A stretch of 64,000 bases of DNA, taken from the sequence record PP400784, one strand, 5' to 3'. Shown piece after piece: positions 1 to 60,502 of this stretch. Under the pieces are notes generated by a model. The model did not search any database. It worked only from the letters and a program-made list of their open reading frames with translations, and was not told the origin of the DNA. A program made the position numbers and the translations under genes. Position 1 is the first letter of the stretch; every line of letters starts with the position of its first letter. The DNA is from Escherichia phage FL38.

Positions 1-476
1 GATTTTAACTCGAACTCAAGTTCATAATGAGCAGTGTCGCCCAATCCTTCTCCTACTTTGCCATAATAGAAAGTGTCTTTGCACATTTCCACTATACCGC
101 AACCCATATCTAGAGTCAATGACTTGCGATATGTCATTACTTGCATTATTGTAGTGATATAGTCGGAGTTTACCCCTAGACTATCAATAAAATGGACGAA
201 CTCATCCCAATTTGAAAATGTCATTTCCTCGCGGTTGAATAGTCCAGATTCATTATCACCCATTTTGACCATGATCTCTGATTTTCTACAGTCAAGTCGT
301 GCATAAATTCCTTTTTGACGTAGCGCATGATCTTCGGTATCATAATAAAATTCGTGTTTTAATATGTTATCTCGATCGACGATATTATAACCGTCATACA
401 TTGCCACCCACAAATCACAGATGGTTTCGACGCCAATTTGTGAGTGTGCATAGTATTTTAACTCAAGTTCTTTCAT
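1..476 (-). CDS. CYTH-like domain protein, partial (start at 476, 3' end beyond window edge)
   Basis: Open frame on minus from ATG at 474-476 with no stop before position 1; N-terminus MKELELKYY (ExExK), FYYDTEDHALRQKGIYARLD and later HYELEFELK resemble CYTH/triphosphate-tunnel motifs; lies immediately downstream of rnh. Confidence 0.45.
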   Translation of the reverse strand, partial: MKELELKYYAHSQIGVETICDLWVAMYDGYNIVDRDNILKHEFYYDTEDHALRQKGIYARLDCRKSEIMVKMGDNESGLFNREEMTFSNWDEFVHFIDSLGVNSDYITTIMQVMTYRKSLTLDMGCGIVEMCKDTFYYGKVGEGLGDTAHYELEFELK

Positions 477-486
477 GTGTCAACCC

Positions 487-1434: not shown

Positions 1435-1436
1435 AA

Positions 1437-1622
1437 TTAAGTTCTCTCCACTCTCACAACAACATATTCGCCAAACGAGTTAGATACTTCACGATCATAC
1501 CCGTACTTCTCCATAACTCGCAGAATTGCATTGTTTAATTCAGCACGGAAATAATTATAATCCTTATCAGGGATTCTGTCAACTACCCATTTTGCACCTT
1601 CTGACAAATCAACTTTAACCAT
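1437..1622 (-). CDS. hypothetical protein (61 aa)
   Basis: ATG with AGAGGA SD upstream; stop abuts rnh start; divergent from gene 34. Confidence 0.5.
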   Translation of the reverse strand: MVKVDLSEGAKWVVDRIPDKDYNYFRAELNNAILRVMEKYGYDREVSNSFGEYVVVRVERT

Positions 1623-1660
1623 AATATATCATCCTCTTTTGTTTCTATCAAGCCTCATTT

Positions 1661-1668
1661 TATAAATA
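1661..1668 (+). promoter_or_regulatory. T4-type late promoter motif TATAAATA upstream of gene 34
   Basis: Exact TATAAATA ~30 nt upstream of gp34 ATG. Confidence 0.5.
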
Positions 1669-1696
1669 TGAACATACTATAAAAGGAGACCCAATA

Positions 1697-4600
1697 ATGG
1701 CAGATTTTTCTCAACATTTCAAGGCCACATTTGGCTTTGACGCTGGTAATGAAAAGGTCGTCAATGTAGCATTGGCTGATAAGAATGTCAACACCGATGC
1801 GATCAACGTTGAATTTTTCAATTACCATAATGGTATTACTCAGTATGACACAACTCGCGGTTATGATCAATACGGAACTACAATCTATCAAAACCGTCCG
1901 TATTATGCAAAAGAAGATATCACAAAACCAGCAGGTGATTTTGACCCGACTAAATGGCAAGCACTGCGCACGGACCCACGTTGGGATTATATTGCAGCAA
2001 CTTCCGGTGATACTCCTTTACAGTCTGGTGATTATATCGCAGCAGATGGTCAATTTGCAAACTTGACTTTCTCTATGCCAACTAAGCCAGCAGAGGGAGA
2101 CACTATAACAGTAAAAGATATCGGTGGCAAGTGTGGTGTTAACGAATTATCGTTCTTGAGTACAGGACATGAGTTTTACCATAACGGTAATGTGTATAAC
2201 CGAAAATGGTATTGCACTACCCCGTATGCAATGAACTATTTCATCTTTGTTCGTAATCGTTGGCATGTTTATCAGACAGGAACAGAGCCACGCGGTGTGT
2301 ACGCACAGCCAGCGATTGATGCTATTCAAATGCAGAATGGTGATCAGGTATTTCGTCGTAGTTCGTTGGGTAATATTACCTTAGTGCTTCCTAAGTTTGC
2401 CAACAATGGCGACATGATCCAGACTACAGACCTTGACGGATTAACCGCAACCAACCACGTTACGGTTAAAGTTCATGAGCACGCAGAAGAACAATCAATT
2501 GGCACGTCCGGTCTAAAAGAGATTATCGGTAAGCGTAGCGGTCATGGTGTATTCATCTTTGACAAGACGGAAAACTTATGGCGTTTGTGGGATGGTGATC
2601 AGTCTGTTCGTCTTAAACCGATCATCGATGACACTCGCTTGCAACCTAATAGCTATGTTGCTGTATTTGGTGATCGTGATGTTACTCTGACGCTGCCGAC
2701 CAATATCGAGCCGGGTGATCGTATTCAAGTTTCTATGCAGTATATGAACGGAAACCAGAATTGCCGTATTATCACCGCCACAGAGGATACAAAAATCCTT
2801 ATGCAGAAAAACATGGTTCAGTTTCCTAAGCGTAGCGAGTACCCATTCAATGGGACCGATACATGGACGGGAGTATCTGAATTGTCTTTCAACGCTGCAA
2901 ATGATTATGTACCTTATCTGGAGTTCTCTTATTCAGAAGGTGATGATGGTAAGAAATACTGGTTGGTGGCACATCCTCACCCGATTGTAGAACGAGTAGA
3001 TCCGACTCGTAAAGATCGTGTTGGTGTAATTGCACTGGCTACCCAAACTGAAACGAATAAAAACCATGAAGAGAATCCTAGCGACGAAGTTGCAGTAACA
3101 CCAAAAATGCTGGCTAATAAAACCGCCAACGAAACTCGACGCGGTATTGCTCGCATTGCGACTCAAGCGGAAACGCATCAAGATACTGGTTCCAACTTCC
3201 TGGATGATGTTATCGTTACGCCTAAAAAGTTAAATGACTGTGTTGCTACCGAAGCCCGTCGTGGTGTGATGGAAATTGCAACCCAGCACGAAACCAATGA
3301 AGGTTTAGACGATACCCGCGCTATTACTCCTAAGAAATTAGAAGAACGTCGCGCTTCCGAAGATCTCGCTGGTATTGCTGAAATTGTTCAGGCTGGCGGC
3401 AGTGCTGCCGCTCGACGTGGCGAAGCTGGTACAGGGATCTATAACATCAATGACCATGCTAAAATTGTTACGCCAAAAAACATCAACGAAGTCAAGGCGA
3501 CCGAAACTTCCCGTGGTGTTGGCTATCTGGCAACTGACGCGGAAGTGCAAGGGGCTACAGAATCAACCCCGCAAGATGCTTTACTCATCACGACTCGCAC
3601 GCTAACGAAACGTACTGCTACCGAATCGCGCACTGGTATCGCTGAAATTGCAACTCAGGAAGAAACAAACTTAGGTCAAAGTGATAACCATATCATCACG
3701 CCTAAAAAGTTGCATACTCGCCGCGCAACGGAAACTTTACACGGTTTAGCAGAAATTGCAACTCAGCCGGAGTTTGACGCAGGTCGTGACGATTCTCGCA
3801 TTTCTACCCCATTGAAGATTAAAACCTTCTTTGAGAATGCACAGCGTTTGAAAGTAGATCCGACTCAGGGGCTTAACCTTACTGGTGATTTGTGGCAAGG
3901 TATCATGATCAGCGGTCTGGATGCAACCGAAGACACAAAAGGTGTCGCTAAAGTTGCTACTACTCAGCTTACTGACGCTGGTCAAGATGATACTACAATC
4001 ATCACGCCTAAAAAGCTGCAAGGCAAAAAGGCCACCGAAGGTAAAGAAGGCATTATCCGAGTTGGTACTCAAGCCGAAACCGTGGCTGGTATTATGGACA
4101 ATGTAGCAATTTCTCCGAAGAACTTCAAATATGTTGTTCAGACAGAGGATACATGGAAAGCAACCGAAGCGCGTCGTGGCTTCTTGAAAGTTGCTACTCA
4201 GGAAAACTGTTTTGTTGGTGATAATCTGCAAGGTTCTACTCAAGAACTAGGAAACTACCAGCATGACGGAATTGCTGTTACTCCGAAAGGATTAAACTAC
4301 GCACTTGCTAATTTCTTACCTAAGATGGCAACCGCTCAGAATAGTTTGAAATTGGGTAACGTAGAGGCCGCTAAATGGGCGCGTAGAGACATTGACCAGA
4401 CCATAGAGAGCAATTACACGTTTAATAAAAAAGTTAACGTGAAGGGCGATTTAGAGTGCTTAAAATCAGGTTCCTTTGAAACTCTGTCTGTGACTAAGAA
4501 CTCGACCGATGTTCCGAGTAATGGTCATCTGGTGTTGGGTGAGCGTGGAGTTGACGGTCACACCGGAATTACTCTGCATGGCACAACCGCATCGGAAGGC

Positions 4601-33107: not shown

Positions 33108-33743
33108 TCAATCGAATGTAGAAAGCAACTGTTTTGTTTCTTTCAGTTGTCGTTCAAGATTTTTGCGTTTCTCTTTAAGTTGCATTTTAGCATTATTTCG
33201 CTCTCTTGTAACCTCTTTATCAATGCTCTTATTCCAGTTATCAATATCAGAATAAGTTGGCATACCCAATTCTAGACCTAATGCGGTTGGATGCAGGGTA
33301 ACAGTCCATAAACCGCTAATCTTCTTAAATAGGTCGGGGTGTAGTGTACTATCTACATCTTCCGGTGTCAACTCTTTTTCTTCTTTCAGTGGTGGGATCT
33401 CGTCATATGGTTCCAGTGCATTTACTTTAATATCAGATACCTCATCAAAGAATCCGCGTACATCCGCAGGAAATACACAAGCAATTTCCCAACCGTGATC
33501 ACGCAGAGAAGTAATATTTTTCACTCCCCCACCATGTGTGATGATTGATGTGACATTGCCATCAAGGTCCACCGAATTTACGAGAAATGGCTTATCGTCT
33601 GTCAGATCATTATAAAACTGTGCTTCGGCTGTAGTCATCTCCAGAAACAGATCTCGGATCGGACGACCATCAGGTGCGTTACCTTCCTTGAGAGTATAAA
33701 AGCGACTTACGATCCATTTTGGCGGTAAAGCATTAGCGATCAT
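33108..33743 (-). CDS. hypothetical protein (211 aa)
   Basis: ORF; coiled-coil C-terminus. Confidence 0.5.
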   Translation of the reverse strand: MIANALPPKWIVSRFYTLKEGNAPDGRPIRDLFLEMTTAEAQFYNDLTDDKPFLVNSVDLDGNVTSIITHGGGVKNITSLRDHGWEIACVFPADVRGFFDEVSDIKVNALEPYDEIPPLKEEKELTPEDVDSTLHPDLFKKISGLWTVTLHPTALGLELGMPTYSDIDNWNKSIDKEVTRERNNAKMQLKEKRKNLERQLKETKQLLSTFD

Positions 33744-47870: not shown

Positions 47871-48104
47871 TTATTTTACCTCTGGGATATAATCAATTAT
47901 TAAAGAAAATTCATCTTCTGATACATTATAGCTATGTGAGATTGTACCCGTAAAGACCTCAAGATCCGGTGATTTGATATTGCACGGATCGATAATCACC
48001 GGAACGCCGCAATCTCTCAAAAATAATTTGGCGAAATACGGCACAAGGTCAGTTTCAAACTCTGCTTCTTCCAGCAAACGGGAAATGTTAATTTTCAATC
48101 TCAT
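47871..48104 (-). CDS. hypothetical protein (77 aa)
   Basis: ORF. Confidence 0.45.
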
Positions 48105-48621
48105 AAAATTGGTCCAAGCTAGGCAATTCCTCGGTCAATACATCTTCAACCTTTGGCGCTTTCGGTTTATTGACCGATTCCTCGTAGTTGTTGATTTTAT
48201 CGTAAATGTCCTGTATGAATGCCTCATCAGCAATCTGGCACATATCAGCGTCGCGTTCGTCATATACATGATGCACAAAATATTTGTATTTTGCGGCTGT
48301 CGCTGTTCTCTCTTTTTTAATGCGCTGTACAAAAGCATTAAAGCACGCTTGCGTGATGTAAGCATGAGGATTTTTATACTTTGTCTCGTCAAAATTAATC
48401 AAACCCTTGACCGCCGCTTCGATTCCGTCGTCGATCATTTCTTCGCGCCACGTTTGACTATAACCAGAAAAGTTAAAACGACGTGATAGATTTTTAGAGA
48501 TTTGCATAATTGCTAGGCCGATTTGATCGCTCATTGGAACTTGCCGACCTTCTGCTGCAATTTGTTGTTTCCAACGGCAAATTTCTTCGTAAAGCTCTTT
48601 ATTGTTTACATAATCAGACAC
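48088..48621 (-). CDS. 55: late-transcription sigma factor
   Basis: 177 aa; [50 protein letters not shown] and FIQDIYDK match T4 gp55. Confidence 0.93.
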
Positions 48622-48661
48622 TTCGCACCCTCGCTATTATTTAGGAAATAACCCTTTCGGG

Positions 48662-50131
48662 CTATTCCCCATTACCATTATACTTTCTTTGCTTAGTTAT
48701 CCACACTCTAACCATCTCTACAGATTCGCCGTCAGACGGATCAAGAGTTTTTCCTTTTTTCTTCATGCGGTACTTAAATCCGTTAAATCTTGCATTCTCT
48801 TGCTCGTTAAAGTCGAACATCTTTTTAAATGATTTTCGCCCTTTACGTTCACCACATTCTAGCGGAATCATTCGATCTGTTATTACATTGGCATTAGGCA
48901 GAAACGTTTTTAGATAATCCACCAACGCCCAATCAGGAACATATAGATTAACATTCTCCTTGCTCTCGTTGTCTCTCAGGTTACAACGCAAACATAATTG
49001 AAATGCTGGTTCCAGATAATCAGACACATGACGCGCTTTCAAAAACTCGTTTGTCGGGAGATCACAACTATTAGCAAGACCTTTTAAAATATCAATCTCC
49101 CATCGTTGAGGGTTAAAGCTGAACATCACAGCAACATTTTTATGATGAATGTAAGAGTTAAGACCATAAGACCCGTAAGGTATCCGCTCACCAATACCAT
49201 TTGTACACGCTTCACGGTCCCGATTCACGGTATAAATGAAGTCATCGCCACATTCATTTTTAACCATATCAACAAGACGTTCAAAGGTATTGTTTGTTTC
49301 TGACTGGTGACGCGACCATCGTTCAGAGTCCGTCATAAGGATGATATTAACTCTATCTGTATTTTTATACTCTTTGAAATATAGTCTGGATTCTAGCGCA
49401 CTCGGAACAAAATCGCAATTTGCATAGTATCGTAGATACTTCCCACTATATGTATCAAAGAGATTTGCACATGCTATCGTAACCTTTTTAAAGTCTCCCC
49501 ACGTACCGTGTTTGTTATCGTTCAAGAAAACAATTTTCGACCCATTCTTCCGGTGTCCTTCGTTATGTTTTACCATAACGTTGATTTTCTTCTCTAATAA
49601 CGCCTCATAAAGCCCTCTAAGAGAAGAATCGATCATATCAGTACCATCCTTCGCACTTTCTATCTTTTCTTTGATAGCGGCCTTCTCAGAGTCTTTTAGA
49701 ACTAAGTTCTGTAGGCATTCCGATTCGTCGGCGATTGGTTCGCAATGCTTCGTGATAAGTTCAAGATTAGACTTAAACGGATACTCATTAAATTCAACCA
49801 GTTGAGGAACTTCATCAATGTAAAGAGCATAATCACCAAACATTTTTGAACGTTCCATATTAGATAACGCTGTATGTGTAATGAATATCACATCAGCACC
49901 ATCTTTAACTGATTGCATTATCGACGCTTGCACTGTCTTAAGGCTTCTTAGTCTTGTGCTATCAATCAAGACAGCACGACCGCCCATTCTTTTAAACTTA
50001 TTGTAAGATTGTTCACTTAAAACACGAGATGGCGAAGCAATAACCGCTTTTTCTTTTGTCTCTAGGACGTGGGAAAGTATAGCATCAGTTTTCCCCGCCG
50101 CTGGCAATGCGATTAATGTTTCAATCTTCAT
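48662..50131 (-). CDS. P-loop NTPase of unknown function (489 aa)
   Basis: Walker A IALPAAGKTD at residues 8-17; motif Ia-like VIASPSRVLSEQ; Walker B LYIDEVP; no T4 counterpart recognised. Confidence 0.5.
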   Translation of the reverse strand: MKIETLIALPAAGKTDAILSHVLETKEKAVIASPSRVLSEQSYNKFKRMGGRAVLIDSTRLRSLKTVQASIMQSVKDGADVIFITHTALSNMERSKMFGDYALYIDEVPQLVEFNEYPFKSNLELITKHCEPIADESECLQNLVLKDSEKAAIKEKIESAKDGTDMIDSSLRGLYEALLEKKINVMVKHNEGHRKNGSKIVFLNDNKHGTWGDFKKVTIACANLFDTYSGKYLRYYANCDFVPSALESRLYFKEYKNTDRVNIILMTDSERWSRHQSETNNTFERLVDMVKNECGDDFIYTVNRDREACTNGIGERIPYGSYGLNSYIHHKNVAVMFSFNPQRWEIDILKGLANSCDLPTNEFLKARHVSDYLEPAFQLCLRCNLRDNESKENVNLYVPDWALVDYLKTFLPNANVITDRMIPLECGERKGRKSFKKMFDFNEQENARFNGFKYRMKKKGKTLDPSDGESVEMVRVWITKQRKYNGNGE

Positions 50132-50436
50132 TAGAAACCCTTACGTCGTGCTTTCTGGCATTTCTTGATCATTTTATCAGAAATTTCGCGCTTAGGTGCA
50201 ATCTCTTTCACACCGAAAGCACTAATGCCAAATTCAGAGAGAATATATTCAACCAACAATTCACGCACACGCGCTTTACCGATATTCACGCCGTTATTTT
50301 TCAGATATGTCTGGCCTTCGACTTGCATCAGATCTAAATCTGCGTCGGTAATATTGATTTCTTCCATGCGCCCAAATCGAGAATAAACCATGTGTGCGAT
50401 TGCATTGTGTACTAACATAATATATTCCTCACTCAA
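50131..50436 (-). CDS. hypothetical protein (101 aa)
   Basis: ORF. Confidence 0.5.
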   Translation of the reverse strand: MSEEYIMLVHNAIAHMVYSRFGRMEEINITDADLDLMQVEGQTYLKNNGVNIGKARVRELLVEYILSEFGISAFGVKEIAPKREISDKMIKKCQKARRKGF

Positions 50437-50439
50437 GAA

Positions 50440-50598
50440 TTACTTAATGATACTTACTTTACCAGATCCATGACAATGAGCGCAACACCCATCACCACGC
50501 AATCCTGTTCCGTTACAGTGTTTACACTTCTTCAACGGTAAAGCCATTATAGCAAATAAAGCAATAATGAATACCGAAACTAAATTCTCAATAATCAT
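50440..50598 (-). CDS. putative membrane-anchored zinc-ribbon peptide (52 aa)
   Basis: Not in ORF track; N-terminal TM helix then CKHCNGTG...CCAHCHGSG; ATG inside the end of the upstream gene. Confidence 0.4.
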   Translation of the reverse strand: MIIENLVSVFIIALFAIMALPLKKCKHCNGTGLRGDGCCAHCHGSGKVSIIK

Positions 50599-50857
50599 AA
50601 ATCGCCCTCAGTTCTTTATAGCCTCCAATGTGCTCGTTGTCAATGAATATCTGGGGGTATACAAATCGGAGGCTCTTTGAGTTCATCCTCCCCGCCAGTT
50701 CTTCAATCATATCACGGTCGGGAATAATGTCAACCCCGACCTGCTTGAATACTGGTTTAAGTGTATACGGAATACCCAGATCATCCAGTAGCTTCATTGC
50801 ACTAATACAACCATAACAATGATAAGCCTCTTTCGGTATACCGTATATCTCGATCAT
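50588..50857 (-). CDS. glutaredoxin-like protein (NrdH-like)
   Basis: 89 aa; CYGC redox motif; C-terminal PQIFIDNEHIGGYKEL glutaredoxin signature. Confidence 0.6.
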   Translation of the reverse strand: MIEIYGIPKEAYHCYGCISAMKLLDDLGIPYTLKPVFKQVGVDIIPDRDMIEELAGRMNSKSLRFVYPQIFIDNEHIGGYKELRAIYDY

Positions 50858-51354
50858 TTCTCAGCCTTTAATCTTTCTAGTTCTTCTTCCAGTTCCTTGA
50901 TCCGTTGGTCACGTTCAAAGTCACGCTGCAACTTAGTGGCGAATACTCGTTTAAACTGATTGTAATCATCGATTTTAAACACTTCTTCTTCGCCATAGCG
51001 ACGCACAGAAACTTCGTAGTTATTGAAGAATTGTTGCATCATTGCTTCGGATGATAGCTCTGCTGATACCACTTTAAAATATTGATCTTCTGTAGGCGAA
51101 AACCAATTACAAGCATAAAGATAAACCTTTTCATTGTCTGGACACTGGTAAGCCTTACCATCGATTTCAATCACAGAAACATATTCAGGTATACTAGATG
51201 AATCAATAGCTAAGACTTTAAACGCACGGTCCCCGATAAACTCGGAGATCACACGATTCGCATCACTGGTTGCAAATGCTTTACGCGCTTGTTCGTTTTT
51301 CCACTGATAGGTCATGCCAACAACAAACATATTACCAACCTCGCTCTTTACCAA
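50854..51354 (-). CDS. repeat-domain family protein (1 domain + helical tail)
   Basis: Shares the ...FKVLAID...IEIDG...WF...DQYFKVV core and coiled-coil tail with neighbours. Confidence 0.55.
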   Translation of the reverse strand: MVKSEVGNMFVVGMTYQWKNEQARKAFATSDANRVISEFIGDRAFKVLAIDSSSIPEYVSVIEIDGKAYQCPDNEKVYLYACNWFSPTEDQYFKVVSAELSSEAMMQQFFNNYEVSVRRYGEEEVFKIDDYNQFKRVFATKLQRDFERDQRIKELEEELERLKAEK

Positions 51355-52156
51355 TCAAAAATTCAACTTCACGACGTTTAATGTCTTCTTGAAGGTCTTT
51401 AATCTTCTGGCGATCTTGCATGATTTCATCCATCTTGTCAAGTGCCGCAATGAAATCATCGAAACGTTCAAAGGTTTTACCTTCATTTGCTTCGCCAAAT
51501 TTAACCATTGTCAGGCCGTAACGACTACTAAACAGACGTTTCAACTGTCCAACGATCTTAGAATCAGTGGTTATAACTTCCAATTCTTCTACTTCACGAA
51601 AGAATTTTCTATCAGAATCAATAAACCAGCTAGTTCCTTTATGGTCTCTATCTTCGGTTGCGCTCATTAGAGTATGGTCTTTACCATCAATTTCAATTAC
51701 ATCAATTTGCCCACATGGACGAACATTTTTAACAGTAAAAGGTCTATAATTTATTGCTCGTGCAATAACATAATTAAGATTAGATACGTTTTCAGCATAA
51801 TGACAGAAGTCGGTCATAGCATTCGCATCTTTCCAAGTATAAGTTTTACCAACTTCCCATTTCTGGGGAACTTCTTCAACTTCACGAAAGAATTTTCGAT
51901 CGAATGGACTAAAGAAATATGTTGCAGTCCAAATGTCTTTTCCTGTAGCAGTTTTCGCCGTATGATAAACACCGTCTAGCTCTATTGCATCAATCCAACC
52001 GTTACCATCGATCTCGATGATGGTAAATGGCTTGTCACCAATAGCTGCACTAATATCGCTGTTAAGTGGAGAAAGAACACCTTCTCCGTTAGTAATAAAC
52101 TCAGTTTTAGCGTTTTCATCTTTCCAGGTGTAGGTTTTACCAATTTCCCATTTCAT
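51332..52156 (-). CDS. repeat-domain family protein (2 tandem domains + helical tail)
   Basis: MKWEIGKTYTWKD...DRKFFREVEE occurs twice, then tail. Confidence 0.6.
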   Translation of the reverse strand: MKWEIGKTYTWKDENAKTEFITNGEGVLSPLNSDISAAIGDKPFTIIEIDGNGWIDAIELDGVYHTAKTATGKDIWTATYFFSPFDRKFFREVEEVPQKWEVGKTYTWKDANAMTDFCHYAENVSNLNYVIARAINYRPFTVKNVRPCGQIDVIEIDGKDHTLMSATEDRDHKGTSWFIDSDRKFFREVEELEVITTDSKIVGQLKRLFSSRYGLTMVKFGEANEGKTFERFDDFIAALDKMDEIMQDRQKIKDLQEDIKRREVEFLIGKERGW

Positions 52157-52168
52157 AATATATTCCCC

Positions 52169-52669
52169 TTAACCGATTTTATCAAGTTCGTTTAATGCTT
52201 TCTCTGCTTCCTGTATAGCTTGCACCCTTTCCGGCATTTTGTCAAGAAAATCTTTCAACTCTTCAAAACTGGAGATATGACGCAATGCGTTAGCACCGAT
52301 AGCCGCATGTGATTTGCATTCAAAGCGGATTTTATAATTATCCATCGCCAATTTGAGAAGGTCTATTAGATCATATTCATGACCAGGCAATAAAACTTCT
52401 TTGAAGCACGCTCGGTCGCCATCGGAAAACCATATATTATCACCAACATCGATAGAACTAATATAATCCCCTTCGTGATTATAGATTGAACGTACATTAC
52501 CCCAACGGTCTACCGTAGCGACAGTAAATGGTTTATCTAGATATGTAAACACACCATCAATATTAGGTTTTTGTTCGTAACGCCAACAATCACGCAAAAT
52601 GCGCTTTTCGTCCTCACCAACCAACTTATATGTCTTCCCTTCTTCCCATTTCATAATATCATCTCTCAT
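52169..52669 (-). CDS. repeat-domain family protein (1 domain + helical tail)
   Basis: MKWEEGKTY...KPFTVATVD...DRACFKEV, tail with LKDFLDKMP. Confidence 0.6.
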   Translation of the reverse strand: MRDDIMKWEEGKTYKLVGEDEKRILRDCWRYEQKPNIDGVFTYLDKPFTVATVDRWGNVRSIYNHEGDYISSIDVGDNIWFSDGDRACFKEVLLPGHEYDLIDLLKLAMDNYKIRFECKSHAAIGANALRHISSFEELKDFLDKMPERVQAIQEAEKALNELDKIG

Positions 52670-53195
52670 TTTTGATACGTGATTCTAATTGGATCATACG
52701 GTCGCGCGTTTGTTTGTATTCTCGGATAGCACCGATCCGGCTAGGCATACCATCCAGTACGCTCTTAATACCTTCTAGGGTAGTGATTTTAGCAATGCTA
52801 TTATGCAACCCCATCTTATCGATCAACTGAATGTCGTAGGCTTCCATAAGCAGACCCAGACGTTCTAAAGTTAGGTCTTCTTCTTTTTCTTCAGAATCTG
52901 GAATCTTAGGTTCAATAATAACTTCGGTAAAGAAACGACGCTCACCCGACCAAAACCACACACCGGAACAGCCAATAGGGGATTCTTTTAACGTCATAGA
53001 GTCGAAATCACTACCGATAATAGTAATTTCTCTAACATCACCATCATCGTCAATGTCTTCTACCCTAAACGGGCGACCAGCCAACAAGTCAACAATACAT
53101 CTGTTAATAGACGACGAAAATTTAGTCAGTTCGGCTTTCGACGCTTCGCATTCAATCTTGTAAGTTTTACCAACTTCCCATTCCATAATAATCAC
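52659..53195 (-). CDS. repeat-domain family protein (1 domain + helical tail)
   Basis: MEWEVGKTY...RPFRVEDID...ERRFFTEV, tail with LDGMP. Confidence 0.6.
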   Translation of the reverse strand: MIIMEWEVGKTYKIECEASKAELTKFSSSINRCIVDLLAGRPFRVEDIDDDGDVREITIIGSDFDSMTLKESPIGCSGVWFWSGERRFFTEVIIEPKIPDSEEKEEDLTLERLGLLMEAYDIQLIDKMGLHNSIAKITTLEGIKSVLDGMPSRIGAIREYKQTRDRMIQLESRIKNER

Positions 53196-53196
53196 C

Positions 53197-53706
53197 TCAA
53201 ATAATTTTCACTGGAATACTATTAACAATCTTGTATTGTACTTGATTGTCAGATCCCCGCCACGGCTTCTTCGTTGGCATATCTTTAATATAACGCCCAT
53301 CGATGAACATGTCAACTGATTCTACAATTTTTCTTTGCTCATCATTCAATTGGTCAAGGGTATAACCGGACCATAGCCAAATATCTTTATTTGGCATCCA
53401 TGATTTTACTTCATCGATGATCCGCTGTACACCCTTTAAATTGCGTTTATACAGTGGATCGCCACCTAAGAATGTTAGCCCCTGAATAAAATCAGGTCTA
53501 AGCAGATCCAGAATCAATCCCATTGTATCATCGGTGAATGGTTCCCCGTTCTTAGGATTGAGTAGGCTAGCATTAAAGCAACCATCACATGCATGTGAAC
53601 ATCCGGTAACGTAAAGGGAGACTCTCACTCCCTCACCGTTAACCATATCACAATCTTTAATATCGGCATAGCGTAGTTTGCCGTATGTATCAGAACTCAT
53701 ATTCAA
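53197..53706 (-). CDS. nrdG: anaerobic ribonucleotide reductase activating protein (radical SAM)
   Basis: 169 aa; GCSHACDGC cysteine cluster; adjacent to nrdD. Confidence 0.8.
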   Translation of the reverse strand: MNMSSDTYGKLRYADIKDCDMVNGEGVRVSLYVTGCSHACDGCFNASLLNPKNGEPFTDDTMGLILDLLRPDFIQGLTFLGGDPLYKRNLKGVQRIIDEVKSWMPNKDIWLWSGYTLDQLNDEQRKIVESVDMFIDGRYIKDMPTKKPWRGSDNQVQYKIVNSIPVKII

Positions 53707-53842
53707 TTACCCCGAACTCGTTTACAATCTGCGCTTTATAGTAACCACCGCGAGATGCTAATAGATAAGCTGGGCTTAGGTATTCGTATTCACGGATTTC
53801 TACTTGTGCGTTTTCAGTTTCCCAAATCAGTAAAGTCCACAT
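53690..53842 (-). CDS. hypothetical small protein (50 aa; start trimmed)
   Basis: Track start lies inside the promoter palindrome; internal ATG MWTLLIW has SD AGGAGAATCAAAT. Confidence 0.4.
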   Translation of the reverse strand: MWTLLIWETENAQVEIREYEYLSPAYLLASRGGYYKAQIVNEFGVIEYEF

Positions 53843-53884
53843 ATTTGATTCTCCTGTAAAGTTGTATCTCGTCTTGATGAATAT

Positions 53885-53914
53885 AGTATAGGGGATCTCG
53901 CGATCCCCGTCAAG
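53885..53914 (-). promoter_or_regulatory. early promoter with palindromic spacer (type I): TTGACG-GGGATCGCGAGATCCCC-TATACT
   Basis: Inverted repeat fills the spacer. Confidence 0.55.
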
Positions 53915-53917
53915 CAT

Positions 53918-54466
53918 TTATTTTAAATTTTTTCGAATGTAGTCAGACCATTCCTTCCCTGTCAGTTCGGTCCCATTCTGGAAACTGAAATATTCATACG
54001 GCATCGAGTCAAGATAAAACAGGATCATACATCGCGCCATATAATACCAATCACGATTAAAGTAAACTACGTTATCACCAGTACCATCAACCCCTTTATC
54101 ATAACCATCGCGGGTACGGGCGACCCATTGAATAGTATCATTTTTCTCGCGGATCGTAACAGGTTCCCAATATCCAGCACATCCAGCATGACCACACGAA
54201 CAAGTCAGGAAATATTGACCTTTTGCTTTGTTGTCATCCCATTCACGATGGATTGGTTCGATCTCGTGAAACAGTGCTAAGCAATCATGATTATGCAACA
54301 CTGGCTTACCATCAATCAATGCATGGAATGTATACAAACGACCAGTAGACAAATAGCTATCCTCACGCTCAACCAGTTCAATAGCAATCTTTTTAGCTCG
54401 TTCTTTGTGTCGTTGTGCTTTACGCTTACGGTTTAATGATTTCATATTCACCTCACACATTATCAA
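53918..54466 (-). CDS. hypothetical protein (182 aa) with Cys cluster CSCGHAGCAGY
   Basis: ORF between nrdD and nrdG. Confidence 0.5.
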   Translation of the reverse strand: MIMCEVNMKSLNRKRKAQRHKERAKKIAIELVEREDSYLSTGRLYTFHALIDGKPVLHNHDCLALFHEIEPIHREWDDNKAKGQYFLTCSCGHAGCAGYWEPVTIREKNDTIQWVARTRDGYDKGVDGTGDNVVYFNRDWYYMARCMILFYLDSMPYEYFSFQNGTELTGKEWSDYIRKNLK

Positions 54467-55002
54467 AGGTCGCGATATAGTACATTATGAAAATGAGAAC
54501 TTGCATTACCAATATTGTAGATAATAAATTCTTCATCCGGCGCTTGCGCTACAAATTGAGTATGAGCAACCGCCACAACCTTAAAAATACGATCCGTGAT
54601 CTTGTGTTTAATTTCTGCCCCTACTTCCATAGGAACATATTCATTTGTTTCTGTTTCAGTCGCAAAACAGCCATCTTCTTCATAAGCACGAACAAATCGA
54701 TCGCAATCAGTACGCTTAACAAATTCAAGAGTATACAATTCTCGTGAATTGTCGGTATAGACCAATACAGAATTATTATGATAGCGAATCACATACAGGT
54801 TATTATCATCGTCAATTACGCAAAAGCTACGGATTCCTTCGCCTTGACTCCAGCAGATATTAACCACCGTTCCTCTAATAAAAAAACTTTCCTTTAAATT
54901 AAAACTAGTCAATGTGCTAGCGTGCATTTTAACAACAACACCATCGCCAATTTCCAGTTTACGAAGTTTAACTTCTTTGTTCAGTACACAAAACATCATC
55001 AT
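54463..55002 (-). CDS. hypothetical protein (179 aa)
   Basis: ORF; TTGACA-16 nt-TATAAT promoter upstream at about 55030-55058. Confidence 0.5.
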   Translation of the reverse strand: MMMFCVLNKEVKLRKLEIGDGVVVKMHASTLTSFNLKESFFIRGTVVNICWSQGEGIRSFCVIDDDNNLYVIRYHNNSVLVYTDNSRELYTLEFVKRTDCDRFVRAYEEDGCFATETETNEYVPMEVGAEIKHKITDRIFKVVAVAHTQFVAQAPDEEFIIYNIGNASSHFHNVLYRDL

Positions 55003-55069
55003 GTTGTCCTCTCGTTGTTTTCGATGTGAGCATTATACATTAGCTAATCATGTTGTCAACACCCCAAAA

Positions 55070-55097
55070 CGAAAAAGCCGACCCTTTCGGATCGGCT
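55070..55097 (-). terminator. intrinsic terminator after nrdD
   Basis: Minus strand AGCCGATCCGAAAGGGTCGGCT then TTTTTC; same arm sequence as hairpins at 6623 and 16714. Confidence 0.55.
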
Positions 55098-55102
55098 GAA
55101 AA

Positions 55103-56965
55103 TTACATGTGCTTAACGCGGTTTACCATCTCGGAGTGTTTCCCGTGGTTAAATGGACGCAGATCAACAGATCCAAGATATCCACTAACGCGACGGATAA
55201 CATTCATCTTTTCCAGATTGTCATTGCCGCAATCAGGGCAAACAAAACCAGACTCGGTCGCTCTCATTTCCTTATTAGATCCGCATACATGACATACATC
55301 AGAAGGAGTATTAACACCGAAGTAGTGCAATTTATCCATTGCATAGTCTACTACAGTTTCAAGACCTTTCAGGTTGTTTTTCATGTCTGGGAACTCAACA
55401 TAAGAGATCATGCCACCGGACGCCAGCCAGTGATAATCTTTCTCAAAGTCGATTTTCTCAAATGGTGTGACTTTCCGGTCTACGTCAAGGTGGAATGAGT
55501 TGGTGTACCAGTCTTTATCGGTAGCACCCTTAACAATACCAAATTTCTCTCTGTCCAGTCGATTAAATCGATAGCAAAGACTCTCGGCTGGCGTACCGTA
55601 AAGACTAAACCCAAGTCCGGTTTCGTCCTTCCATTTTTCAGTATAATGACGCAAGATCTTAAGAATATGTTTACCGTATCGCTGCGCATCTTCCGAATCA
55701 AACGGATGAACACCAAACAGGACGCTCAATACCTCATGTAAACCAATATATCCAAGAGAGATACTAGCGCGACCATCTTTCAGCACTTCCAAAATTTCAT
55801 CGTTTTGATGAATACGGAAAAATGCACCTTCGGTATACAGTACAGGAGCAACATTGGCTTTAGCCCCTTTTAAAGCGTCTACGCGACTCATAAGCGCATC
55901 AAAACAAATAGGCAGACGATTCGCTAGCTCTTGTTCGAATAGCTCAATTCTGCGCATTACAGACGCTTTACCAGCACGACGCGCGGCAATAAGGGCAATA
56001 CGCGGAAGATTCAGAGTCACAACACCTAAGTTATTACGTCCGTCTAATACTTCTTCGCCTTTCTCATTATGCCACACACCCAGGAAGCTACGACAACCCA
56101 TCGGGCTAACCGGAACACTAGATCCAGTGATGCTACGGTTATTCTTCGCAGAGATATAATCAGGGTAAAGACGCTTACTCGAACATTCCAATGCAAGTTG
56201 CTTAATGTCGTAGTTCGGATCTTCCGGTTTAAGGTTTAATCCTTCTTCTAAGAACATCACCAGCTTAGGAAACACCGGAGTTATACCGTCTTTACCTAAA
56301 CCTTTAGTTCGAACTTTCAGGATCGCTTTCTGAATCAGTTTTTCTTCCCAGCTAGTACCCATACCAAAGGTTAAAGTCACAAAAGGCGTTTGACCGTTGG
56401 TGGAGAACAAAGTGTTGATTTCATATTCCAACGCTTGATACCCGTCTAAAGTTTCTTTTTCTGTCTTCTCTTGTGCATAGAGAGTATCAGCTTTGATTCC
56501 GTAGGTTTCGGCATCAGCAAGGTGTTTATGATATGTTTTCTCAACGTATGGCGCTAAAACCTGATCGATGTTTGCAATTGTGGTCCCGCCATATTGATGA
56601 CTTGCCACCTGTGCGATAATTTGAGCGGTTACAGCACAAGCAACGCCGATTGATTTCGGACTTTCGATTTGTGCGCTACCCAATTTAAAACCATTCTCTA
56701 ACATGTCTTTGAGATTAACAAGACAGCAGTTAGTAAACGGCATAGCTGGTGCATAATCCATATCATGATAATGAATATCACCGTCTACATGCGCTTTATA
56801 GATGTGCTCAGGTAACACGGTTTTAGCAATCTGTTTAGACACAGCGCCAGCAATCAGATCTCGACGTGTCGGGAATGTTCGCGCGTCTTTGTTCGCGTTC
56901 TCTTTGCTTACTTCGTTTTCTTTACCCGTTGCGATCTCTGTAATGTCTTTGATTAGTTTTTCCAT
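55103..56965 (-). CDS. nrdD: anaerobic ribonucleoside-triphosphate reductase (glycyl radical enzyme)
   Basis: 620 aa; C-terminal zinc ribbon CHVCG...CPDCGN and glycyl-radical motif RVSGYLG. Confidence 0.95.
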   Translation of the reverse strand: MEKLIKDITEIATGKENEVSKENANKDARTFPTRRDLIAGAVSKQIAKTVLPEHIYKAHVDGDIHYHDMDYAPAMPFTNCCLVNLKDMLENGFKLGSAQIESPKSIGVACAVTAQIIAQVASHQYGGTTIANIDQVLAPYVEKTYHKHLADAETYGIKADTLYAQEKTEKETLDGYQALEYEINTLFSTNGQTPFVTLTFGMGTSWEEKLIQKAILKVRTKGLGKDGITPVFPKLVMFLEEGLNLKPEDPNYDIKQLALECSSKRLYPDYISAKNNRSITGSSVPVSPMGCRSFLGVWHNEKGEEVLDGRNNLGVVTLNLPRIALIAARRAGKASVMRRIELFEQELANRLPICFDALMSRVDALKGAKANVAPVLYTEGAFFRIHQNDEILEVLKDGRASISLGYIGLHEVLSVLFGVHPFDSEDAQRYGKHILKILRHYTEKWKDETGLGFSLYGTPAESLCYRFNRLDREKFGIVKGATDKDWYTNSFHLDVDRKVTPFEKIDFEKDYHWLASGGMISYVEFPDMKNNLKGLETVVDYAMDKLHYFGVNTPSDVCHVCGSNKEMRATESGFVCPDCGNDNLEKMNVIRRVSGYLGSVDLRPFNHGKHSEMVNRVKHM

Positions 56966-56976
56966 TGTATCACCTA

Positions 56977-57000
56977 TGAAAAAGCGGGATTTCTCCCGCT
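56977..57000 (-). other. stem-loop AGCGGGA-GAAA-TCCCGCT plus U-tract immediately upstream of nrdD
   Basis: Terminator-like hairpin 12 nt before the nrdD ATG; possible attenuator or processing site. Confidence 0.45.
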
Positions 57001-57009
57001 CGTTGATAG

Positions 57010-57504
57010 TTATTTTACCAGTTCTGCTAATTCTTTTTCTTTAGCTTCTAGTTCAGCTTTAAGCTGTTTAATCTCTTGTCGCTTCTTATTAGCGGCTTCT
57101 TGCTTACTATTTCGGATAACCTGATCTAGATACAACTCCCAATCCTGAATATTTTTGATAATGTAACCGTCAACATTAATTGGTCGGAGATTCAGTACAG
57201 CTTCCAGTTTAGTCGCAAAAACTTTAATTGCTGGTGTGAAGTATTCATATTCGTTATCTTCAAACCAATAACCTAGACTTGCATTATCAATACGAAGACG
57301 AAGTTCAAGATCAAGGTCTTTATCTTCGGTGTAAAGATCTTTCACCTGACCCAGCGAACTAACAACAACTTTAAAACGAATTTTATCTACACCACCAAAC
57401 ACATCAGTAAGGATACCAGCAATTGAGCTATTAGCGCAAGATTGGTCGCTGAATGCGTCAAGGTTTTCTTTAGTTACAGTATACCAAACATCTTGTACCC
57501 ACAT
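57010..57504 (-). CDS. hypothetical protein, possibly divergent member of the repeat-domain family (coiled-coil C-terminus)
   Basis: YWFEDNEYEYF and KQLKAELEAKEKELAEL tail; weak similarity only. Confidence 0.45.
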   Translation of the reverse strand: MWVQDVWYTVTKENLDAFSDQSCANSSIAGILTDVFGGVDKIRFKVVVSSLGQVKDLYTEDKDLDLELRLRIDNASLGYWFEDNEYEYFTPAIKVFATKLEAVLNLRPINVDGYIIKNIQDWELYLDQVIRNSKQEAANKKRQEIKQLKAELEAKEKELAELVK

Positions 57505-57528
57505 AATATAATCCTCTCGTTGTTAAGT

Positions 57529-57563
57529 GGGAGTATTATAGCATACTCCCTTCGCATGTCAAG
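57529..57563 (-). promoter_or_regulatory. early promoter with inverted repeat (type II): TTGACA-16 nt-TATAAT within GGGAGTAT/ATACTCCC
   Basis: The -10 TATAAT sits in the loop of an 8-bp inverted repeat. Confidence 0.55.
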
Positions 57564-58737
57564 CACTAACTTTTTTCTTTACTGCTTTCACCTTCTGGCG
57601 AATTGCTCGAATCTCTTCGATCTCTTTTTCAGTCTCTTTAACAATTTCTTTGCGATTCTGAATATCTGTATCTAGATTATCATCAAGTTTAGGCAGCATG
57701 TCAATCAAGAACTTTTTAAAGTCTTTCAGGTTTCGGATAACAGCACCTTCACCCATTACCGCCACGCCTACACCATCCGGCAGATCACCAAACAGCTTAA
57801 CCAGTTCAGACAGATGATCATGATCTTCTAGTGCTTCTTCCGGTTCAGATGGCAGTTCAACAAAGTTATAACGTTCATCATTGCTGATCAGGTGATACCA
57901 GCAAAGCCCAAAAGATTTAGGAGTATATTCTACACCACCAACTTCAACTGCGTCAACACTTCCGAAAGAATCTACTTTAGTTACCTTAAATCCATGTTCC
58001 AGCGTTTTAATAATTTCAATAACATGACTGGATACGGTTTCAGTATTAAACCAATGAGGCAAATTATGTGGATTTGGCTTGTATCGTTCGCCTACTTTAA
58101 ATCTCTGACCACGCTCTTGCATACGGACATATTCAACTCGCGTGATTTCCGCGAAGTATTCAAATTCGCTACCGTCAAACAAGCAATTCCATTGATCACA
58201 AAAACGGTCCGCCTTGACGGTTTCACCTTTCGCGGTGATCATGGTAGCTGATCCGTGCAATTCTTCTTCAACTAAAAAGCCATATTCGACAAAATCAACA
58301 AGTTTCATGGCTTCTTTGTGCTCTGGGTCATGCTCTCCCCAGAATCGCTTAAATTCTTGCAAACCTTCTGGGGTAAACGAATAACATTTACCTTTTTCAA
58401 AGTAAGTCGGCATTGCATCCTCTTTCTTGTTCATCGCTTCGTATGCCTCTTTTGAGATACGTTTAAAGTATTTGCGCTCATTGTGCATAATCATAGTAGA
58501 CCAATAATAAACGATATCCTCAGCGGAATAAACTACATCTCCAGCTTCAATAGTAATAACATGACCGTGGTCATCTTTTTCTAATACTTTAAAGCCCTTT
58601 TCTACGATTTCAGCAACCCGAATATGACCACGGCGCGAAGCATCGGTCAGAATAATTGAATAGCGAGAAAAGTCTAGAAACTCATCTTTACCGCCTTCAC
58701 GGAATGCATAGTAATGACCTTCAAAGAATTTAGCCAT
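57559..58737 (-). CDS. repeat-domain family protein (3 tandem domains + helical tail)
   Basis: Three units each with F.xG.YY...GFKV...ERKYF/ERYNF, then tail with NLKDFKKFLIDMLP. Confidence 0.6.
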   Translation of the reverse strand: MAKFFEGHYYAFREGGKDEFLDFSRYSIILTDASRRGHIRVAEIVEKGFKVLEKDDHGHVITIEAGDVVYSAEDIVYYWSTMIMHNERKYFKRISKEAYEAMNKKEDAMPTYFEKGKCYSFTPEGLQEFKRFWGEHDPEHKEAMKLVDFVEYGFLVEEELHGSATMITAKGETVKADRFCDQWNCLFDGSEFEYFAEITRVEYVRMQERGQRFKVGERYKPNPHNLPHWFNTETVSSHVIEIIKTLEHGFKVTKVDSFGSVDAVEVGGVEYTPKSFGLCWYHLISNDERYNFVELPSEPEEALEDHDHLSELVKLFGDLPDGVGVAVMGEGAVIRNLKDFKKFLIDMLPKLDDNLDTDIQNRKEIVKETEKEIEEIRAIRQKVKAVKKKVSA

Positions 58738-58762
58738 AATATAATCCTCTCGTTGTTTAGAT

Positions 58763-58797
58763 GGGAGTATCTTACTACTCCCGTTTCATCATGTCAA
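58763..58797 (-). promoter_or_regulatory. early promoter with inverted repeat (type II): TTGACA-17 nt-TAAGAT within GGGAGTA/TACTCCC
   Basis: Palindrome identical to the one at 15139. Confidence 0.55.
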
Positions 58798-59378
58798 GCG
58801 TTAAATGACTTTTGGATCTCTTTCAGTTCAGCTACTTTATCTGCGCTGAATTTAGCGTAGGTATCATGTCGAATAATTTCACTTTCAAGAAAGGTTTCCA
58901 GTCGAGATCTATTTTCAATAAGGAACTCTTTCAGGTCTTCCGCGTTCTTGACAAAGATTTTATTGTCGGTAATGTCATCTTCAATCGCAAAGGAGATAGA
59001 GCGAACTTTACCAAACAAGTTAATCAGATCTTCCAGAGATTCTTCTTTCTTAACTGGTTTCATTTCTTCAAACTGCTTTTTAGTGATGCGTTTAAAGTAT
59101 TTGCGCTCGCTTGCATCAATCATGATTGACGCACCCTCATAATCATGAGTTTCTACCAAATACACTTTACCCATAACATTAACCGTAAGAACTTTAAAGC
59201 CCCTGTGAAGCACACCATACAGGAACTTGTTATGTTGTGGGTAGCGTTTAACAAATTCCTCTGCGGACTCAGCATTACGGAAAGTGTAATAACGACCTCG
59301 TTCAAAAACAGCATCATTTGAAGACTTAGCCGGATACAATTTATACGTTTTCTGTACCATAATATAATCCTCTATCAT
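58794..59378 (-). CDS. repeat-domain family protein (1 domain + helical tail)
   Basis: FERGRYYTF...GFKVL...ERKYFKRI, tail with AEDLKEFLIEN. Confidence 0.6.
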   Translation of the reverse strand: MIEDYIMVQKTYKLYPAKSSNDAVFERGRYYTFRNAESAEEFVKRYPQHNKFLYGVLHRGFKVLTVNVMGKVYLVETHDYEGASIMIDASERKYFKRITKKQFEEMKPVKKEESLEDLINLFGKVRSISFAIEDDITDNKIFVKNAEDLKEFLIENRSRLETFLESEIIRHDTYAKFSADKVAELKEIQKSFNA

Positions 59379-59707
59379 TTCACTAATTGAACAGCACGGA
59401 ACAGAATGCGCTCACACGGAAGCAGCATAAATTCCCAACGCGGATCAAAGTCTTTAGCGGTGTATGTTTTCCCATCAACCGAGATTTCACTTACATAACC
59501 AACAGGTGACACTTTAAGAACAGTAAACCCATTCTTGATGACTTCGTAGGTATATTTCACCCCTTCGTATTCATCATCTAAGAAGTCTTTATGTGCTTGC
59601 TCAGATTTAAAAACATAGGCAACACCGGATTTAAACATCTTACGCATTGTTGATTCTCCTTCTTGATTAGATGGGAGTATTTTACTACTCCCATTTCTTA
59701 TTGTCAA
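59375..59707 (-). CDS. repeat-domain family protein (single domain, no tail)
   Basis: MFKSGVAYVF...GFTVLKV...ERILFRAV. Confidence 0.55.
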   Translation of the reverse strand: MTIRNGSSKILPSNQEGESTMRKMFKSGVAYVFKSEQAHKDFLDDEYEGVKYTYEVIKNGFTVLKVSPVGYVSEISVDGKTYTAKDFDPRWEFMLLPCERILFRAVQLVK

Positions 59708-59708
59708 C
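59673..59708 (-). promoter_or_regulatory. early promoter with inverted repeat (type II): GTTGACA-17 nt-TAAAAT within GGGAGTA/TACTCCC
   Basis: Between gene 49 and the family gene 59375..59707. Confidence 0.55.
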
Positions 59709-59710
59709 TA

Positions 59711-60199
59711 CTATCTTAATCTTTGTATGAATTGTTTCTTATACTTCTTCGTGATTTCTTCTCGTGTATCAGCGTCGCAGTAATCGAAACCTTCTGCGTC
59801 CATAATATCAACCATCTCCGCGCGTGTCAAGCGTGAAAATCGTTTTACTTTATCAACAGCATATTGAGGATGTAAATGATTGTTGGTGTAGTCTCCTTTG
59901 ATGTAATTAACATAGTTTGTAGCCCAAACAACGAAATCAGCACCTAAAGCACCAACACCAAACCGTTTAAAGTCTCCGGTCAACGATCCTTCTAGGCGGT
60001 TGCAACACGAATGAAGCAATCCCCTTACGCGGCCTTGCCCTTTCCCATCTAGATCGTGGTCGTGGTCAAGATGGTTTTTGCTCATATCCTCAAAAAGTGG
60101 CAATTGACAAAGGGGGCAAATGCCCCCCTGTTTTTCGAATAGTTCTTGTTTGTACTCTTTAGCACTCTTAGCAGTCAGTAACATAAATTCACCCTCCAA
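59711..60199 (-). CDS. 49: endonuclease VII (Holliday junction resolvase)
   Basis: 162 aa; C.LCQ zinc site, HLDHDH...G..RGLL..CN..EG and YIK.DYT.N..HP match T4 gp49. Confidence 0.88.
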   Translation of the reverse strand: MEGEFMLLTAKSAKEYKQELFEKQGGICPLCQLPLFEDMSKNHLDHDHDLDGKGQGRVRGLLHSCCNRLEGSLTGDFKRFGVGALGADFVVWATNYVNYIKGDYTNNHLHPQYAVDKVKRFSRLTRAEMVDIMDAEGFDYCDADTREEITKKYKKQFIQRLR

Positions 60200-60208
60200 A
60201 GAAGGTAT

Positions 60209-60502
60209 TTAACCATTAATCTTGTTTTTGACTACAAAGGATCGGAACTCATCAAAGCCACCGATATAATCACCATCATAGAAAATCTGCGGCATGGTGG
60301 CAATAACTTCTACCCCTGCGCGATCCTGAATATCGGCAATGATAGAATCAATCTTTACCGGACGACCGTTTTCGTCCACACCATCATTAACCGGAATGTA
60401 GATGTAAGGGATCTTACGCGATTCACAAAGGCGCTTTGCATTCTGGCAATACTTACAGTTGTAACCTTCAAAACCAAAAATTTCTACCATGTTATACCTC
60501 AA
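60209..60502 (-). CDS. nrdC: thioredoxin/glutaredoxin
   Basis: 97 aa; C.YCQNAKRL and TMPQIF.DG..IGGFD match T4 NrdC. Confidence 0.8.
   Translation of the reverse strand: MRYNMVEIFGFEGYNCKYCQNAKRLCESRKIPYIYIPVNDGVDENGRPVKIDSIIADIQDRAGVEVIATMPQIFYDGDYIGGFDEFRSFVVKNKING

Follow-up and report, generated by a model that had tools for sequence, protein, structure and literature searches.

What do four consecutive, mutually related genes do between nrdG and nrdH in a T4-like coliphage? The genes in question lie on the minus strand at positions 50854-53195 of a 64,000-nucleotide stretch of Escherichia phage FL38 (record PP400784), which we call the window; the source phage is a Krischvirus of the RB49/GEC-3S type. 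A reading made earlier from the letters of this DNA (the sequence-only reading) had described the four genes, here named A to D, as paralogs built from one repeated module. In the present study, profile comparisons indicate that A-D very probably belong to the family of the T4 protein GoF, in which they form a subfamily of their own (phrog_5347). GoF has puzzled geneticists since the rho/nusD studies. That it belongs to a family was recognised only in 2025, in T4, where the members are three single genes. What we find thus adds a subfamily and a larger array to a phage family already known, and the swapping of head cassettes between genomes is the one feature that we found to be undescribed.

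The repeated module and its relation to T4 GoF

The four open reading frames (ORFs) are situated exactly where the sequence-only reading had placed them (50854-51354, 51332-52156, 52169-52669 and 52659-53195, all on the minus strand), and its lengths of 166, 274, 166 and 178 aa are those of the longest ORFs. The likely starts, taken from the Shine-Dalgarno (SD) and ATG context and from the annotation of GEC-3S, give somewhat shorter products for three of them. Gene D (52659..53186, 175 aa; longest ORF to 53195, 178 aa) has a strong SD sequence, GAGGTGAT, ahead of the ATG at 53186, and consists of a GoF-like head (aa 1-92), an acidic disordered linker and a helical tail. Gene C (52169..52654, 161 aa; longest ORF to 52669, 166 aa) has one GoF-like head and a tail, as does gene A (50854..51330, 158 aa; longest ORF from a TTG at 51354, 166 aa), whose tail ends in ...IKELEEELERLKAEK. 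Gene B (51332..52156, 274 aa) has two tandem heads, B1 (51869-52156) and B2 (51581-51868), followed by a tail (51332-51580). Each of the four proteins matches phrog_5347 over its full length, with E values from 1e-59 to 3e-93 (A, 1.4e-60; B, 2.8e-93, in two stretches; C, 3.2e-59; D, 8.5e-67).

The N-terminal module of about 92 aa is common to A-D and occurs twice in B. Modules compared in pairs are 22-34% identical; for B1 and B2 the figure is 51%. When a profile hidden Markov model (HMM) was built with one module left out, the omitted module was found at E 4.5e-9 to 6.6e-18, at rank 1-3 among the 641 ORFs of the window, which is far beyond chance similarity. The shared module, put at about 95 aa in the sequence-only reading, is therefore real, and so is its tandem arrangement in 51332..52156, where two complete domain hits were obtained (E about 1e-42 each). 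The motifs that had been quoted (MKWExGKTY, PF(T/R)V..D..G and WF..(D/E)R.FF.EV) are also present. The Cluster I heads, that is, those of A-D, are acidic (net charge -3 to -8, isoelectric point 4.5-5.6), and the Arg of the (D/E)R motif is the sole conserved basic position in the module alignment. A homolog search with D, made with a word index, returned only orthologs, at 66-98% identity.

For the tail, the leave-one-out HMM gave E values of 7.5e-4 to 0.16, always at rank 1-2 of 641, and full-length local alignments extend through the tails (for example, 171 columns between C and D). Of the conserved helical tail that had been claimed, the helix stands, since the tail ends in a predicted 28-residue helix, but the motif ..L(K/D).FLD.MP.. 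is clear only in C and D.

The relation to GoF is indicated by several comparisons. T4 GoF itself matches phrog_622 (E 4.6e-38) and phrog_5347 (E 6.5e-7, GoF residues 4-137), A-D all match phrog_622 (E 5e-19 to 2e-4), and for A and B there are also hits to PHROGs that bear the label 'goF mRNA metabolism modulator'. Alignment of the module alignment with T4 GoF by hhalign gave a probability of 94.7% (E 6.3e-8, GoF residues 3-92); GoF residue D25 falls on a variable stretch of the module in it. When the HMM of the five Cluster I modules was run against 622 T4 ORFs (73 kb), the three best-ranked were GoF (E 5.5e-8), Frd.2 (0.029) and MotB.1 (0.52), in that order. Furthermore, among 1.84 billion proteins a profile of the window modules recovers a GoF-type representative, P0072, at E 5.2e-7. 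Neither Pfam (to E 1) nor NCBIfam gave a hit above noise for the paralogs or for T4 GoF, and neither holds a model of the family. The sequence-only reading had not recognised the module as a T4 gene product, and this must be corrected, because the module corresponds to the N-terminal domain of T4 GoF. It had also set a match to a well-characterised T4 family against its own interpretation; the family matched is a described one, but GoF is not well characterised.

An AlphaFold2 model made for D from 17 sequences is consistent with this assignment of the head. The model of the head (predicted local distance difference test, pLDDT, 85-93) has five strands (8-11, 40-45, 51-56, 64-65 and 86-89), the first of which is followed by a helical hairpin, and forms a bent five-stranded antiparallel beta-sheet, a small barrel as in the GoF/Frd.2/MotB.1 family. 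The central 'hairpin-like core' noticed earlier corresponds to the beta2-turn-beta3 hairpin of this model. The linker (residues 94-103, EPKIPDSEEKEED) is acidic and has pLDDT below 50, and the tail is modelled as a helix, a hairpin of two short strands, a helix and the terminal helix of 28 residues. The predicted architecture of the proteins is thus one or two SH3-like small beta-barrel heads of about 92 aa, a short acidic disordered linker and a tail of about 70 aa with a long amphipathic helix. The structural neighbours found in BFVD (64) are all uncharacterised and essentially all from T4-like phages; Foldseek gave no significant match in the PDB, and profile searches of PDB sequences with the full-length and module alignments found no solved relative. 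A ribbon-helix-helix module (CopG/Arc/MetJ type), with its strand-helix-helix dimer, was considered as a candidate fold of the tail.

Kim et al. (2025; PMC12152347) described the family comprising GoF as well as Frd.2 and MotB.1, with an N-terminal 'LSm-like fold'. T4 GoF (goF, comC-alpha; 141 aa; phrog_622) and the proteins described here are homologous over the N-terminal 90 aa or so (21-26% identity) and share the order of head, acidic linker and short C-terminal domain. GoF and these proteins alike are acidic, occur only in T4-like phages and are encoded in accessory gene regions. However, T4 goF is a single gene adjoining gene 39, whereas the present genes form a tandem array of four in the nrdG-nrdH slot. 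Unlike GoF, some members here have several heads (two in B and three in a relative elsewhere in the window), the tail is longer, with a terminal helix of about 28 residues that T4 GoF does not have, and the PHROG is a separate one. With the tail HMM, neither the C-terminus of T4 GoF nor that of Frd.2 is detected; a strand-plus-helix likeness seen by eye is unproven, its sole support being the phrog_5347 alignment that reaches GoF residue 137. T4 Frd.2 and MotB.1 share the predicted five-stranded small-barrel head, but their sequence similarity is marginal (11-24% identity, at the E values given above) and their C-terminal domains are different.

Other small barrels are more remote. FeoA, EF-P domain I, the Mind bomb REP domain, Tudor domains and the C-terminal domain of IdeR/MntR are SH3-like barrels with a likeness at the level of the fold only, which gives no functional indication. 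In comparison with the FeoA type, identity is 15%, there is no Pfam FeoA hit and the best Foldseek E value is 0.29; moreover, the heads here have the helical hairpin after strand 1 and are without metal-related motifs. Hfq and the Sm/LSm proteins can be placed in one broad class with the heads, that of small, bent barrels of five strands, and the analogy was proposed for GoF (PMC12152347). However, the heads here have no Sm1/Sm2 or Hfq sequence match, are acidic and not basic, and show no indication of ring assembly, and in the structure search Sm or Hfq proteins were not the closest neighbours of the head.

Variable heads and conserved tails

We compared the array in nine genomes, namely the window, GEC-3S, ECD7, Makalu_002, 011D4, FL04, UPWr_E1, E26 and a 170-kb contig from ENA. 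The array ORFs are intact and in the same order in all nine. The mean amino acid identity of the heads is 71-80% (minimum 47-57%), and that of the tails is 91-98%; for the flanking genes nrdG and nrdH it is 98.6% and 96.8%, respectively. The pooled ratio of nonsynonymous to synonymous differences (pN/pS) is 0.42-0.49 in heads, 0.07-0.15 in tails, 0.06 in nrdG and 0.21 in nrdH. The heads thus diverge about 5-10 times faster than the tails. The claim of diversifying pressure made in the sequence-only reading stands in so far as the heads change faster and are exchanged as cassettes, but with pooled pN/pS below 1 the average selection on the heads is relaxed or faster, and not positive.

The divergence is mosaic and not gradual. 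Single head cassettes have only 55-72% DNA identity to the window, while nrdG, nrdH and most tails remain 94-100% identical (two A tails are at about 86%). The replaced cassettes are A in ECD7, Makalu_002 and E26, C in 011D4, and D, B2 and A in both FL04 and UPWr_E1. In ECD7, for example, DNA identity to the window amounts to 97-100% over nrdG, D, C, B and nrdH, to 68% in the A head and to 85% in the A tail. In 011D4, the C head is at 58% and B1 at 79%; in FL04 and UPWr_E1, the D head is at about 62%, B2 at about 55% and the A head at about 70%. From this mosaic pattern it appears that the heads behave as exchangeable cassettes, for which the tails and the conserved ends of the module serve as recombination anchors.

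Gene B also varies in its number of heads. B2 is absent in E26 and in the relative L005, which have one-module variants of B, and short matches were seen in ELT4 and AV108. A 30-nt direct repeat (51584..51613, 93% identical to 51872-51901), encoding DRKFFREVEE, is found at the 3' ends of B2 and B1, and a 57-nt direct repeat (81% identical) marks their starts. These repeats are a possible substrate for unequal recombination by which B2 may be gained or lost. In a separate observation, the ortholog of gene D in ECD7 (L006, 3063-3554) has a frameshifted C-terminus, so that the product of 163 aa ends in ...VLSANTSKRATV and is without the conserved helix at its end; a natural truncation and a sequencing error would each account for this.

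The locus and the wider family

The region 50400-53800 is matched by 58 phage records at 90-99% DNA identity, all of the Krischvirus type, in all of which the four array genes are annotated as hypothetical proteins. On the minus strand, the gene order is nrdD, two genes of no assigned function, a small DUF7170 ORF, nrdG (53197..53700, PF13353), D, C, B, A and the nrdH-type glutaredoxin gene (50588..50857), followed by a small ORF, a DUF7570 protein, a 489-aa protein and gp55. The array genes are spaced by 1-12 nt, each with a proper SD sequence, and the stop codon of A overlaps the start codon of nrdH (ATGA). A sigma-70-type promoter-like site (53885..53913, minus strand; 10/12 in a consensus scan), which coincides with a promoter annotated in GEC-3S, is located upstream of the small ORF, nrdG, the array and nrdH; from there to 48000 the minus strand showed no terminator-like site. 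Together with the tight spacing, this fits early co-transcription with nrdG and nrdH; A-D are probably made, judging from these signals, as part of a prereplicative polycistronic message, in keeping with the earlier placement of the genes in an early region. Rfam gave no RNA family within 48000-60500.

Several neighbours deserve mention. The small ORF upstream of nrdG (53690-53917, minus strand) matches DUF7170 over its last 50 residues (E 2.4e-17); relatives annotate only a 50-aa version, and the longest ORF of 75 aa probably overcalls the start. The two genes between nrdD and nrdG (53918-55002, minus strand) encode proteins of 182 aa (phrog_8242) and 179 aa (phrog_14838), for which Pfam gives no match and the HMM no likeness to GoF; their divergence is moderately fast, at 88% and 74% identity to L005. 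The ORF at 54463-55002 had been considered as a divergent family member (E 0.087 with the first HMM) and was dropped when the 15-module HMM missed it. The 489-aa protein (48662-50131, minus strand) has a weak DEAD-helicase mark in Pfam and is unusually divergent between relatives, with 72% identity to the L005 protein and saturated synonymous divergence; the neighbouring gp55 is about 99% identical.

The module is also found in five further genes of the window, which justifies the label 'Cluster I' for A-D. The paralog expansion claimed in the sequence-only reading is therefore real and larger than A-D, with nine GoF-like genes and twelve modules in the window, in comparison with three genes in T4. 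Four of the five form a second array, Cluster II (57010-59647, minus strand), between nrdD and the gene for endonuclease VII. Paralog E (57010..57504, 164 aa; phrog_15067 and phrog_3710) has one divergent head and a coiled-coil-like tail; F (57559..58737, 392 aa; phrog_8944, E 1e-210) has three tandem heads (E 1e-21 to 1e-25) and a tail; G (58794..59378, 188-194 aa), detected by HMM hits, has one head and a tail; and H (59375..59647, 90 aa; phrog_16115) is a head with no tail. F and G carry the label 'goF mRNA metabolism modulator' in the RefSeq entry of GEC-3S. Perfect 12/12 matches to the sigma-70 consensus are present at 57562-57535 and 55059-55032.

The fifth gene, paralog I (33108..33743, minus strand; 211 aa), is isolated and encodes one head, a long linker and a tail; the cluster representatives P0052, P0075 and P0089 are orthologous to it. 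It lies directly downstream of gene 41, the helicase gene, and T4 GoF(D25Y) affects the mRNA level of that gene. The 211-aa protein 'Dc2' of ECD7 (A0A220NT60) is a candidate ortholog by its length only. T4 gp61.2, which shares with paralog I the position between genes 61 and 41, is unrelated by HMM.

A whole-genome scan of an assembly of the Krischvirus RB49 found the same nine genes and one marginal candidate, a 111-aa ORF (OZ035808, 134035-134367; E 0.003 with the 15-module HMM), which could be a highly diverged member of the Frd.2 or MotB.1 kind. The twelve-module profile retrieved only 76 clusters at E <=1e-3 from 1.84 billion representative proteins. From these clusters, the 58 nucleotide matches and the BFVD neighbours, the family appears to be restricted to T4-like phages. 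Two more distant T4-like contigs carry related arrays. In L017 (positions 1-3271; Logan SRR8048117, a short metagenomic contig), at least six GoF-like genes whose products have helical tails (162, 168, 164, 171, 159 and at least 71 aa) come one after another behind nrdG. This is the largest array among the loci examined. In L016 a two-module protein of 274 aa is encoded directly upstream of nrdH. An array beside nrdG or nrdH thus recurs in more distant phages with variable copy number. In T4, the nrdG-nrdH interval holds only gene 55.8 (70 aa).

Possible roles of the array

The explanation that we prefer, with a probability of roughly 0.6, is that A-D are GoF-like early accessory proteins in which variable heads are carried on a constant tail. 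The array would encode non-essential proteins that tune the takeover of the host. The head would be the specificity element and bind a variable partner, which may be a host protein, a phage protein or an RNA, and the tail would be the constant element, through which the protein dimerises or is docked on a conserved partner. Heads would be replaced as cassettes through recombination in the conserved tail and in the coding ends of the module (MKWExGKTY and DRKFFxEV), and the array would grow and shrink by tandem duplication and unequal crossing-over. For the binder part of this explanation, variable head and constant tail, we see about even odds. If it holds, a protein partner is slightly favoured over RNA, because the Cluster I heads are acidic and wild-type GoF had no strong effect on RNA (PMC12152347). 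A role in host interaction or anti-defence, as the sequence-only reading had suggested, is a plausible candidate.

Several observations weigh against this explanation. Homology between the tails of the paralogs is weak, as seen from the leave-one-out E values, and confidence in the modelled tail is low to moderate (pLDDT 55-80 within the full model); a tail-only AlphaFold2 model (pLDDT 60.5) was too poor and was not used for a fold search. The early timing is read from consensus promoter matches only. T4 goF and motB.1 mutants grow normally, and AlphaFold3 gave no confident homomultimers of GoF, hexamers included (PMC12152347). The family's one functional lead, in addition, points to RNA rather than to protein: with GoF(D25Y), a gene 41 leader reporter RNA has a longer half-life, and these are the only functional data for the family (PMC12152347). 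Other findings on the T4 proteins are that GoF, an abundant protein of the early phase, runs both as monomer and as dimer (PMC12152347) and that Frd.2 scored as a fitness gene when T4 was screened by CRISPRi-ART (PMC11879866).

The lead from D25Y suggests another possibility, namely that the proteins are Hfq/LSm-like chaperones which bind RNA directly and stabilise or destabilise phage or host mRNAs, with a different set of RNAs for each paralog. The label 'goF mRNA metabolism modulator' would then be taken at its word. The reporter result, the LSm-like fold proposed for the family and the supported membership of A-D in the GoF family all agree with it, and the location of paralog I next to gene 41 is a positional curiosity only. 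However, wild-type GoF and MotB.1 had no strong effect on RNA, and D25Y was read as a gain of function (PMC12152347). There is also no Pfam match to LSM, Hfq or any other RNA-binding family at E up to 1, and a ring oligomer is not indicated, as AlphaFold3 produced no confident GoF hexamers. The acidity of the heads and the single conserved basic position also speak against RNA binding, although this argument is a weak one. We consider this explanation unlikely. The anti-defence reading proposed earlier, taken here as a dedicated array in which each head would inhibit or decoy a different host defence protein, is a special case of the binder model; an arms race would select for new heads and for changes in copy number. 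It accords with the independent replacement of head cassettes in genomes that are otherwise 94-100% identical, with the faster evolution of the heads, with the variable copy number (four here, at least six in L017; B2 present, replaced or absent), with the plastic accessory slot where T4 has only 55.8, and with the acidity of the proteins. However, pN/pS is below 1 in all heads, PADLOC gave no meaningful match (a CARF_PIN hit on B of 15.8 bits was treated as chance) and our literature searches linked no member of the family to a defence system. Furthermore, the presence of the array in all 58 Krischvirus records found would suit a core accessory role equally well. We thus regard a dedicated anti-defence array as doubtful.

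The array might also be evolutionary filler, that is, duplicated ORFans or remnants of mobile cassettes that lack a function and hitch-hike between nrdG and nrdH. The dispensability of the related T4 genes in the laboratory, the plasticity of the locus and the frameshifted tail of the gene D ortholog in ECD7 could be explained in this way. However, filler would hardly be kept intact and in the same order in nine of nine genomes and matched in 58 phage records, with tails under strong purifying selection (pN/pS 0.07-0.15), heads below 0.5, a proper SD sequence for each gene, tight and coupled spacing, and arrays at the same position in more distant phages; this explanation is very improbable.

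A more far-reaching version of the preferred explanation may be considered. The nrdG-nrdH array and Cluster II together could be a repertoire of binders, in which interchangeable heads each have their own host target, such as defence proteins or RNA-decay factors, the tails form homo- or heterodimers or dock on a hub, and heads are traded between co-infecting phages through recombination at the conserved tails and module ends. We regard this version as speculative and rather improbable. The description of the family in T4 makes no mention of RB49, Krischvirus, paralogs or multi-module proteins (PMC12152347), and our literature searches found nothing relevant on defence escape by Krischviruses, nor on this locus in the paper comparing RB49 and phi1.

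As for the family as a whole, these results show that a single phage can carry an expanded set of nine GoF-family genes with twelve modules. The four 'hypothetical proteins' in the 58 Krischvirus records can be labelled GoF-like. The combination of a fast-changing, recombining head with a strongly conserved tail suggests a testable design, in which the head provides specificity and the tail a common function, and the natural allele swaps in near-isogenic phages can be used to find targets. If the repertoire version were true, Krischviruses would possess a combinatorial, quickly re-assortable toolkit for counter-defence or takeover, and it would provide the first general functional logic for the T4 GoF family.

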